From the IMG/VR virus record IMGVR_UViG_2713896770_000036: a stretch of 19,591 nucleotides of DNA; one strand, 5' to 3'. Positions 12,001 to 15,000 of the stretch are shown piece after piece (within the stretch, counting starts at the first letter, position 1; every line of letters begins with the position of its first letter). The DNA is from a virus (lineage: Duplodnaviria > Heunggongvirae > Uroviricota > Caudoviricetes). Position numbers: made by a program.

Positions 12001-15000
12001 TGCAGCGCGTACTGGCGTTTTACCAGAATGGTTTTCGAGAGATATTCGGTGAACAGGTTATGCATGAGGGAAATCATGGCACTCAGGGCAGTGTGTAGGC
12101 ACGTTGACGGTAGAAAGCATATGGGGGATCGATCGTTCTTGTTATGCTGTAAGAGCGAAAGCGCAGGCGCTGGGTATCAACAGGATGTTACGGGGTGACT
12201 TTCACTTGAGCTAGTGGGATCAATTTTACTGTTGGGGTGGGGGGACGTTAAGTTGCTGACAATTTCGAAATGTTTTTGATAAAGGCAGCGATTTTCTTTG
12301 ATGGAGGGGCTACAAAAAATTTTTCATGTGAAATATGATATCTGCGATGTTATCAAATGTGAAAATATTTATGAATCTGCAAAAAAGAAGAAAAGTTCAA
12401 AAACTAAACTATCGCGGGCAAGTTTCGAAACTGAAGAGGGGGATATTTAATTCTCTGAAAAGCACGGATTGGGAAGGAGTAGAAAATGCGAAGAGAAAAC
12501 TGGAATATTACAAACGCACTCGTAAGCTACGAGTCTCGAAGAAAAAGTTGACAACAAGTAATAAAAGGGTGGTTTTTTCTGCTCCGATATCTATTAATTA
12601 TTACAACGATCGTGATTTTGAAATCATGAATAAATTTTTAAATAATTTACGCGATTGCGTGTTGAAGAATAATCGTGTTTATATAGATTTTTCTTCAACT
12701 AAATATATAAGTGCAGCTGCTATGTTATCTTTTCTCGCTGAAGTTGATGTGCTTATTAAGAAAAGTGAATTTGGAGTAAATGCCATAGGGTTTTCACATC
12801 CGAAAGACAAGAAAATTGAAAGCATTTTGAATCAAGTCGGTTTCTATGATCTATTAAGGAAACCTAAAAGAGAAACTGAAAGTTATGATGATGTGACTTT
12901 TTGGAAATATACATCAGGTTCTTGTTCTGAGCCTCTTTTAGCAAAAGAAATGATGGTGGAAATAAAAAAAGAGTTAGAAAGAAAATCATCAAAAAAATTA
13001 TACCGTGGCTTTACTGAGGCCATGTCTAATTCTGTCGAGCATGCTTATGTTGATGATTTTATGCATACGGAAGATGACGAAACAGCTAAGTGGTGGACCT
13101 TTGCTGGCATACATGACAAAAATCTTACAGTGGTAATATGTGATAAAGGAGTGGGAATACCTTCAACATTGCCTAAAACACAAGGTGTAAGTGTGCTAAT
13201 GAACATCTTCAAAAAACTTAGAGTTCCATTAGCAAATGTAAAGGATTCTACTTATATAAAGGCTTCCACGTTACTTCAGGAAACGAGGACTGGGGAGCTG
13301 AACCGAGGTAAAGGCTTGAATGATATCAAATCGGTAATCGATTCAATAGGTGATGGTTTTATGGGGATTTTTTCATCAAAAGGGCGCTATATTTACAAAG
13401 GGAAAACTGGCATTATTAACGAAGTGCTTAGAGATTACAAAAGCTCTGTTAATGGTACTATAATTGAATGGACAATTCCTTGTGAGGTGGAAACTGAGTA
13501 GTATGAAAATTATAAAAGTAGCCAGTCGTTATCCTTGCCCAGGACCTCGTTTTAAAAGATTGGGGCCCGCTTCTGGTGAGGAGTTTCGTGAGTGGGTAGA
13601 AAGAGAGCTTAAACATTCACCAGATCTAACAATAGACCTTGATGGAACGGAGGGGTATGGTTCTTCTTTCTTGGAGGAGTGCTTTGGCGGATTGATTAGG
13701 CGTGGCGTGAGTCCTGATAAGGTTAAAGGGATTAAATTTATCTCAGAAGAAGAACCTGAGTTAATTGACGAGATAAATGAATATATCGAGGACGCTATAA
13801 AGGTATCTCATGGCTAATTCAAGTATCCAGGTCTGTACTTGGAGTGCAGACTTTTGGTGTAAGTTTTTTTCTTTGTTTAAAGATGAAAATCAGTATGTAA
13901 CTTGGTTTTTAGTTTTAGTTGGATGGGGGATTACGGCATATATTGCTTATCTCCAAACCACAAAAAGTAGAGGAGATGCTATTAAAGATGCTCATAATGA
14001 ATGGATCGGTGAGTTTAGACAAAAACTGGAGTTGCTTGAGGATTTTGCCTTAGAGTTCTGGGCTGAAGATAATAATAAAGAACCTACACTGGCGTTAGCA
14101 AAAATGAGTAGGGAGGTTAAGAGTTTAACTACTATCGCTAAAGAAATTGAAAGGGCCGGTGGTGAAAAATATAAGGCAAAATTGTTTAAGGAATTACGCC
14201 AAGCCATGACATATGATAGTGATGTTCACAACCGACCTCTAAGACCTGATTGTATGCAAATTGTTAGGATTAGAGAAACATGTGCAAGTTTGAGAAGTGC
14301 GTACGGGCGCAAAAGCTTGACTGAATAACCTCATATTGCTGAGTAGCTGGTACTGCATATTATTATGAAAACACATCGTGGTTTTTATATAAAAGCTGCT
14401 TATTATTAAGAGATCTGTTTTATGTTTTTGGCTAGTAAAATGTGATTCTTAACTTAAATGTTCCCTTACACTAGATTTATAATATCATCGTGTGATTTAT
14501 AAACTATGCATTAGTAATAATTAATTTTTCGGAAAAATAGTTAAGTAAAATTGCTGCGTGTGCTTGAGGCTATCTGCCTCGGGCATGAACACCAACGGCA
14601 GATAGAGAAAAGCCCAGTTAACATTACGCGTCCCGCAAGACGTTTAATATTAAACTTAGGCCAATTTCATGCTAGACACATGGATGTTAGCCTCTTACGT
14701 GCCGAAAGGCAAGGAGAAGCAGGCTATGAAGCAGCAAAAGGCGATGTTAGTCGCCCTGATCGTCATCTGTTTAACCGTCATAGTGACGGCACTGGTAACG
14801 AGGAAAGACCTCTGCGAGGTACGAATCCGAACCGGCCAGACGGAGGTCGCTGTCTTCACAGCTTACGAACCTGAGGAGTAAGAGACCAGGCGAGGGAGGA
14901 ATCCCTCGCCACCTCTGATGTGTCAGGCATCCTCAACGCACCCGCACTTAACCCGCTTCGGCGGGTTTTTTGTTGCGTGCTGAATGCGTAGGGTGAAAAA

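Follow-up and report, generated by a model that had tools for sequence, protein, structure and literature searches.

The stretch of DNA considered here, a virus sequence of 19,591 nucleotides (Caudoviricetes; IMG/VR record IMGVR_UViG_2713896770_000036) that is referred to as the window in the following, corresponds to a Rac-like lambdoid prophage of Escherichia coli whose integration site adjoins copD/yebY. It contains a translationally coupled cassette of three genes, encoding a GHKL kinase with an internal STAS domain (K), a small STAS-like protein (S) and a single-pass membrane protein (T); their coordinates and features are compiled in Table 1. A preliminary description of the window had drawn attention to the range 12335–13817, for which it predicted a partner-switching chemistry carried by a GHKL kinase and a separate STAS-like partner with a candidate phosphoserine. 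Both open reading frames (ORFs) of this gene pair do exist, and the two peptides that had been singled out were found in place, VYIDFSSTKYISAAAMLSFL at 12677–12736 in gene 1 and IDLDGTEGYGSSFLEECFGG at 13632–13691 in gene 2; the range, however, does not take in the operon's third gene, and both start codons had to be revised. According to RefSeq and to the aligned N-termini of homologues, K starts with the ATG at 12371 (376 amino acids, aa) and not at 12335 (388 aa), and S starts with the ATG at 13503 (104 aa) and not with the TTG at 13464 (117 aa). For K, 125 homologues were found, 66 of which are in the alignment, and Met1 is aligned in at least 90% of these 66; initiation at the upstream ATG 12335 appears unlikely.

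Table 1. Features of the K–S–T cassette, with positions given as those of the window.
Feature	Position	Strand	Basis or remarks
Gene 1 (K), predicted STAS–GHKL serine kinase, 376 aa	12371..13501	+	ORF; RefSeq WP_244466804 ("ATP-binding protein"); homologues; phrog_3364
Basic helical N-terminal extension of K, residues 1–61, net charge +17	12371..12553	+	AlphaFold2 (AF2) model, charge
Internal STAS domain of K, ~residues 62–185	12554..12925	+	Holds the gene 1 peptide of the preliminary description (12677–12736)
Ser114 of K	12710–12712	+	
Ala115 of K	12713–12715	+	
GHKL (Bergerat-fold) kinase domain of K, ~residues 205–372	12983..13486	+	
N box of K, E216/N220/E223/H224	13016–13042	+	
G1 box of K, D258-G260-G262	13142–13156	+	
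G2 box of K, R312-G313-K314-G315	13304–13315	+	
Gene 2 (S), STAS-like DUF4325 protein, 104 aa	13503..13817	+	WP_000691548
Candidate phospho-acceptor Ser54-Ser55 of S	13662..13667	+	N-terminus of helix 2; conservation; register
Acidic C-terminal helix of S, residues 86–103, consensus EPELIDEIxEYIxDA	13758..13811	+	Model
Gene 3 (T), single-pass membrane protein, 172 aa, proposed effector	13810..14328	+	WP_000013905
Predicted transmembrane helix of T, residues 30–48, VTWFLVLVGWGITAYIAYL	13897..13953	+	Hydropathy

The three genes are tightly packed, with a gap of 1 nt between the stop of K (13501) and the start of S (13503) and an overlap of 8 nt between the end of S and the start of T. The succession of K, S and a protein with one transmembrane (TM) helix recurs without exception in the 8 genome loci at species level and in 6 additional loci from genomes or metagenomes. 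It is likewise present in Marinobacter phage AS1—the one relative obtained by tblastn in the phage collection, where megablast with the cassette gave no match—and, in a survey of 54 viral contigs from IMG/VR, in every contig with enough downstream DNA; the three-gene architecture is obligate. In the related loci, neighbouring genes mostly overlap or almost do, and the third protein comprises 130–198 aa with one TM helix and matches the T profile in most cases. Of the three proteins, S varies least (49–76% identity versus 22–60% for K and 27–48% for T in the same loci), as would be anticipated of a hub in contact with both partners.

In the single polypeptide of K, a SpoIIAB-like GHKL domain comes after a STAS domain, and both are covered by a match to phrog_3364 (E 4.7e-46). 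Its fold is closest to those of the anti-sigma factors SpoIIAB, RsbW and UsfX, which places it with the anti-sigma type and bears out the GHKL kinase with an internal STAS-like segment that had been proposed for gene 1; a search of the PDB sequences with the K profile returned nothing at E ≤0.1. The residues E216, N220, E223 and H224 of the N box, D258, G260 and G262 of the G1 box and R312–G315 of the G2 box are invariant in 66/66 sequences, and the motifs are also kept in relatives at 22–35% identity; hence, K is probably catalytically active. The N-box Asn of CapK is N218. The invariant aromatic residues of the alignment include W178, W241 and W242. As a whole, K is strongly basic (pI 9.5, net charge ~+28), and its N-terminal extension was modelled as two helices (residues 3–31 and 34–50) with a predicted local distance difference test score of ~85–93. 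Across the family, this extension is ~56 aa long, carries a mean net charge of +15 (minimum +6) and consists to 33% of lysine and arginine; its sequence is not conserved, but the basic charge is always kept, so that the basic N-terminus pointed out in the preliminary description is a real trait of the family. An assignment of K to the two-component histidine kinases was rejected, given that it is without a DHp/HisKA domain, that no receiver is encoded in its vicinity and that its top fold matches are anti-sigma kinases, as was an assignment to the MORC/MutL-type ATPases, given the absence of a transducer domain. In one IMG/VR contig (L032, UViG_2671180921_000033, 3965–5132), gene 1 is split into ORFs of 227 aa and 159 aa within an otherwise 100% identical cassette, reflecting either a frameshift or a sequencing error.

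S matches the Pfam family DUF4325 ("STAS-like"; E 7.4e-12, over the curated cut-off), and its fold is closest to the antagonists of the anti-sigma factors SpoIIAB, RsbW and UsfX. Its most prominent feature is the motif D47-G-x-x-G51-Y-G53-S54-S55-F-L-E-E-x-F-G-G63-L-x-R66, which is almost entirely invariant among 59 homologues. Ser55 is present in 59/59 homologues as well as in all 17 more distant loci examined, while position 54 is Ser in 58 and Thr in one of the 59, with Pro54-Ser55 occurring in a relative from Arcobacter (L009). In the model, helix 2 spans residues 54–66 and begins at Ser54. The C-terminal region is acidic (net charge −8 for residues 82–104), and L87, E90 and Y94 of the C-terminal helix are conserved at ≥90%. 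Of the 441 positions of the phage protein family phrog_5816, S matches only the last ~100, which implies that DUF4325 also forms the C-terminal part of larger proteins of phages; these are possibly fused kinase–substrate forms.

Two sister systems, for which experiments are available, provide the frame for interpreting this pair (Chambers et al., EMBO J 2026, PMC13373217). CapK, composed of a helix-turn-helix (HTH) domain followed by STAS and GHKL domains, is a DNA-damage sensor that single-stranded DNA switches on and that phosphorylates CapS, a protein with a STAS domain and a winged HTH domain, on S54; the N-terminal domain of CapK is dispensable, and the single-stranded DNA is predicted to bind in the STAS/GHKL groove, with aromatic stacking on W68 in CapK and on F54 in VapK (PMC13373217). 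VapKSC comprises the STAS–GHKL kinase VapK, the STAS antitoxin VapS, which possesses a short C-terminal helix and a conserved S48, and the PIN toxin VapC; vapKSC protects E. coli against phage Bas42, the phosphomimetic exchange S48E in VapS frees VapC, VapS S48 mutants behave as expected, and the C-terminal helix of VapS is needed for VapC inhibition (PMC13373217). Structures cited in this context are those of VapS–VapC (PDB 9Z7O) and CapS (PDB 9Z71–9Z73).

The sequences of CapK, CapS, VapK and VapS were taken from the supplementary files of PMC13373217, in which the RefSeq accessions of the three cassette proteins are absent. Both domains of phrog_3364 are common to K, VapK (E 3.6e-38) and CapK (E 1.5e-12). 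By hhalign, the K family aligns with CapK over 250 columns across STAS and GHKL (93% probability, E 3e-7), and with VapK in the GHKL half only (95% probability, E 2.4e-8). DUF4325 is matched by VapS (E 2.7e-17), whereas the Pfam scan of CapS gave no DUF4325 match but HTH_24 (E 2.2e-5). In S, the same scan found DUF4325 only and no winged-helix DNA-binding domain; hence, S cannot be a repressor like CapS. On the basis of these sequence comparisons, K and S are distant members (less than ~25% identity) of the CapK/VapK–CapS/VapS superfamily. With the register counted without gaps from the preceding strand, Ser54 of S corresponds to S58 of Bacillus subtilis SpoIIAA (sequence verified against PDB 1auz) and to S48 of VapS, while Ser55 aligns with S54 of CapS. 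As the only universally conserved serine of S, Ser55 is favoured as the putative acceptor, with Ser54 as an alternative. This is in line with the separate STAS-like partner bearing a candidate phosphoserine that gene 2 had been taken for.

In T, a single Kyte-Doolittle window of 19 residues exceeds 1.6 (value 1.73), and T31, W32, L34, V35, G38 and W39 of the corresponding segment are invariant in the close family. Beyond the TM helix, T has a conserved, mostly helical region of ~120 aa with the motifs HNEW..EFR, LED..L.FW, LTT, GG..Y, FK.LRQ and RPL. Basic residues follow the TM helix throughout the family, which suggests that the C-terminal domain is cytoplasmic. Unlike VapC, T has no PIN domain according to Pfam; a weak match was found to phrog_34309 (E 9e-5). 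A profile search of 1.84 billion representatives yielded 50 clusters only, with proteins of 124–210 aa, none of which is fused to another domain. In front of the TM helix, two cysteines (C9 and C17, window 13834–13836 and 13858–13860) are conserved at ≥90% in the close family and absent from the distant members, whose N-termini consist of a few residues.

The cassette is a low-GC island (GC content 36.8% versus ~50% in the flanking phage genes), placed between the replication module (ydaV, DUF1627, DUF977) on one side and hokD/sok with nin-type genes on the other. It is 100% identical in E. coli strain F2_407_2_2, and among 5,426 complete E. coli genomes it is present in only 24, each time at ≥99% identity. 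All three genes are intact, while the surrounding prophage is partly decayed. In the RefSeq annotation of the identical strain, the DUF1627 gene is frameshifted and recE is truncated (window ~10859–11621 and 4495–6324). In E. coli Rac-like prophages, the slot 3' of the DUF977 gene is a variable cargo site, which in LR-51 harbours the anti-phage system iteA/iteS (L018, 4141–7427), in EC958 QueH (L017, 4116–4781) and in HNSQ2209 a methyltransferase; this alternation of cargo in the same slot identifies the cassette as exchangeable prophage cargo in slots that also house defence systems. Elsewhere, at least 21 out of 68 loci have the gene of a CI-type repressor directly upstream, in the same orientation (a seed-based count, Pfam-confirmed for four), and nine loci lie between cI and the integrase gene of P2/186-like prophages. 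One group of loci resides in a P4-like satellite beside the primase gene, with a putAbiC gene nearby, and the loci L002–L006 are found in chromosomal contexts without obvious phage genes.

Based on the homology of kinase and substrate, the register of the acceptor, the experiments on the sister systems, the operon order and the cargo context, we regard it as most likely, with a probability of about 0.5, that K–S–T is an abortive-infection or exclusion system operating on the CapK/CapS–VapKSC principle. K would then join a SpoIIAB-type GHKL serine kinase, a STAS domain of its own and a very basic N-terminal extension in one chain, and T would be bitopic in the inner membrane, exposing a helical domain of ~120 aa to the cytoplasm. 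In the resting lysogen, unphosphorylated S would bind the cytoplasmic domain of T and keep T inactive, a restraint that, by analogy to VapS, may involve the STAS face and the acidic C-terminal helix. Upon infection, K would be activated by a signal which, judging from CapK, is probably single-stranded DNA, with the STAS/GHKL groove and perhaps also the basic N-terminus as the sensing sites. With ATP as the donor of the γ-phosphate, K is then predicted to phosphorylate S where helix 2 starts, on Ser55 or alternatively on Ser54; the fold, the register, the invariance of the site and the sister-system experiments point to this step. Finally, phospho-S would release T, and T may damage or depolarise the membrane, with the consequence that phage production stops. 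The guess of a nucleic-acid or phage-derived trigger in the preliminary description agrees with CapK, which single-stranded DNA activates; a sensing role of the basic N-terminus is conjectural, considering that the N-terminal domain of CapK is dispensable and that the DNA is predicted to bind in the STAS/GHKL groove.

A broader proposal, which we advance more tentatively, is that the cassette represents an undescribed class of prophage abortive-infection systems, in which an anti-sigma-type serine kinase triggered by phage single-stranded nucleic acid phosphorylates its minimal STAS substrate and thereby sets free single-pass membrane toxins of a new family. Such a class might constitute a phosphorylation-gated functional analogue of lambda RexAB in the same cI-adjacent slot, and the CapK/CapS pair might be a general plug-in trigger for a repressor, a nuclease or a membrane effector.

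Several observations weigh against an abortive-infection or exclusion function on the CapK/CapS–VapKSC principle. T is without a recognisable domain or toxin features and gave no match in Pfam (51 members scanned), PADLOC or PDB; its role as a toxin is pure conjecture. The similarity of S to VapS is weak (hhalign E 0.0076) and that of the S family to CapS is not significant (E 0.15); likewise, the S profile retrieved from the PDB sequences only a marginal STAS match (3t6o, E 0.031) and missed VapS (9z7o) in the same set. The aromatic residue of CapK and VapK that stacks on single-stranded DNA is not clearly conserved in the K family: position 112 of K, which by eye lies opposite F54 of VapK, is occupied by K (21), Y (10), L (10), I (7) or F (6) and is aromatic in 16 of 66 sequences. 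All three proteins produced noise-level matches only in PADLOC-DB v2.0.0 (E 0.026–0.039). The cassette of E. coli lies in the early-right region with the repressor not adjacent, and a scan of 12099–12370 for a promoter of its own revealed none that is convincing. Furthermore, the literature searched contained no experiment or paper on the cassette.

Among the alternatives, the one that survives best, albeit unlikely in our view, is that the module regulates the prophage itself, with K sensing DNA damage in the form of single-stranded DNA and with S and T tuning induction, lysis timing or superinfection exclusion instead of aborting the propagation of unrelated phages. The precedent of CapK as a DNA-damage sensor, the frequent location directly 3' of CI-type repressors and a kinase–phosphatase module of Pf phages that is known to control lysogeny (PMC11341870) would all be compatible with such a role. 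However, some copies of the cassette are remote from the repressor, i.e., between replication genes and hokD in the window, in the P4-like satellite and in the chromosomal loci; it behaves as mobile low-GC cargo, whose slot can be taken by a defence system instead, and does not belong to the regulatory core of any single phage lineage.

Rather improbable is partner switching in its classical, reversible form, in which K would sequester T or a factor of the host in the way SpoIIAB does with sigma F, unphosphorylated S would displace this target, and phosphorylation of S would reset the switch. While the fold of K is nearest to SpoIIAB/RsbW/UsfX and that of S nearest to their antagonists, the relatives that have been studied use signal-activated phosphorylation, which frees S from its partner (PMC13373217). 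Moreover, the 44 features annotated over the 28 kb around the cassette include neither a PP2C phosphatase nor a sigma factor, and the same holds for the Pfam-matched neighbours in related loci; a partner switch could not be reset because of the missing phosphatase. The interpretation given in the preliminary description is partly supported, in that the identities of kinase and partner stand, while partner switching in the classical sense and phosphorylation in cis are not supported.

It is distinctly unlikely that K itself is the effector and shuts down processes of the host or the phage, be it through promiscuous protein phosphorylation or as an ATPase, with S as a pseudo-substrate inhibitor and T as a membrane anchor or a sensor of phage DNA entry. 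The strongly basic K could bind nucleic acid or many partners, and GHKL ATPases are known from several conflict systems. Against this stand the compact SpoIIAB-type domain, which is without the transducer of the MutL, MORC or gyrase ATPases, and the acceptor motif of S, which is the most conserved feature of the system; SpoIIAB-type kinases are not known to phosphorylate anything but their cognate STAS partners.

As for a phosphorylation of K in cis, which had been suggested for the Ser of the YISAAAM motif in its internal STAS domain and would create an autoinhibitory switch, the register with SpoIIAA and VapS is informative. The acceptor-equivalent residue of K is Ala115 (A in 59, S in 6 and P in 1 of 66 sequences), at which the helix of the internal STAS domain begins in the model, and Ser114 occupies position −1, equivalent to D57 of SpoIIAA. 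A hydroxyl is always present at position 114 in the close family (S in 37, T in 29 of 66), no further than one residue from the canonical site of the acceptor; helices are well capped at the N-terminus by Ser, Thr and Asp alike, which explains the conservation of position 114 structurally. Distant relatives of K from IMG/VR (L063–L073, 22–28% identity) display Asp114-Ser115, copying D57-S58 of SpoIIAA, and a cis-acceptor appears more plausible in these. At the position of residue 115, CapK has Leu (profile alignment) and VapK has Arg/Pro (alignment by eye). Given the alanine at the acceptor position, the N-capping role of position 114, the divergent residues in both sister kinases and the fact that no cis phosphorylation is reported for CapK or VapK (PMC13373217), the family-wide hydroxyl and the SpoIIAA-like pair of the distant relatives leave a cis switch in K with very little credibility.

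Directly 3' of the cassette, the type I toxin–antitoxin locus hokD/sok is located (window 14558–14881; sok RNA with 97.6 bits in Rfam, hokD by RefSeq), which would place two different kill modules side by side. Within the cassette, neither Rfam nor ARAGORN gave a match, and the number of promoter and terminator sites found in a scan around it was not above that in shuffles. Known small RNAs detected by Rfam in the prophage and its border are RalA, DicF, the c4-a1b1/isrK/C4 antisense RNA, STnc100 and AgvB, with SraC/RyeA and SdsR/RyeB on the host side (window 463–607, 2169–2347, 7345–7396, 16900–17101 and 18022–18277). At 17876–17935, RefSeq annotates a tRNA-Met, for which the Rfam tRNA match is weak (37.3 bits), and ARAGORN finds no tRNA in the window.

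The kinase–STAS chemistry that had been predicted is not new, as it has already been demonstrated in the sister families; the novelty lies in the effector family and in the prophage-slot setting. Should the abortive-infection or exclusion function hold true, the kinase–STAS pair would be a portable trigger with at least three outputs (repressor, PIN nuclease and membrane protein), and the T family, with its ~50 clusters in 1.84 billion proteins, would receive its first proposed function. It would also explain a recurrent cargo 3' of the repressor in many temperate phages of Gammaproteobacteria and an Arcobacter, i.e., at the position of rexAB in lambda. The cassette is small (~2 kb) and originates from E. 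coli, and the predictions are amenable to testing by point mutants.

Among the known systems, VapKSC shares with the cassette the gene order of kinase, STAS protein and effector, a DUF4325 STAS partner of ~100–116 aa that bears a C-terminal helix as well as a conserved Ser where helix 2 begins, and a location near defence genes. In contrast, the third gene encodes a single-pass membrane protein here and the PIN nuclease VapC there, K possesses a basic N-terminal extension of ~60 aa that VapK (302 aa) is without, and the identity to VapK and VapS is below ~25%. With CapK–CapS, the cassette has in common a kinase that is homologous over both domains, including the LNxxGFxDxL motif, and the SSF motif of S, which aligns with D-S53-S54-F of CapS. 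It differs in that S is without the winged helix of CapS, in that K has a basic helical hairpin where CapK has its HTH domain, and in that one small membrane-protein gene is located downstream in place of a multi-gene immune operon (CBASS, Bub).

The SpoIIAB–SpoIIAA and RsbW–RsbV pairs of Bacillus and Mycobacterium resemble the cassette in the E-x3-N signature of the N box, in the G1 and G2 boxes and in the Ser at the N-terminus of STAS helix 2. K, however, is fused to its own STAS domain, a sigma factor and a PP2C phosphatase were not found near the cassette, and the cassette is prophage cargo, whereas these pairs belong to developmental or stress regulons. RexA–RexB of lambda are encoded directly 3' of cI and couple cytoplasmic sensor proteins to a membrane-protein output; the cI-adjacent position of many cassette loci and a similar logic, with a membrane protein as the output, are reminiscent of this system. 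While RexB has four TM helices, T has one predicted TM helix, and signalling in the cassette is predicted to proceed by serine phosphorylation.

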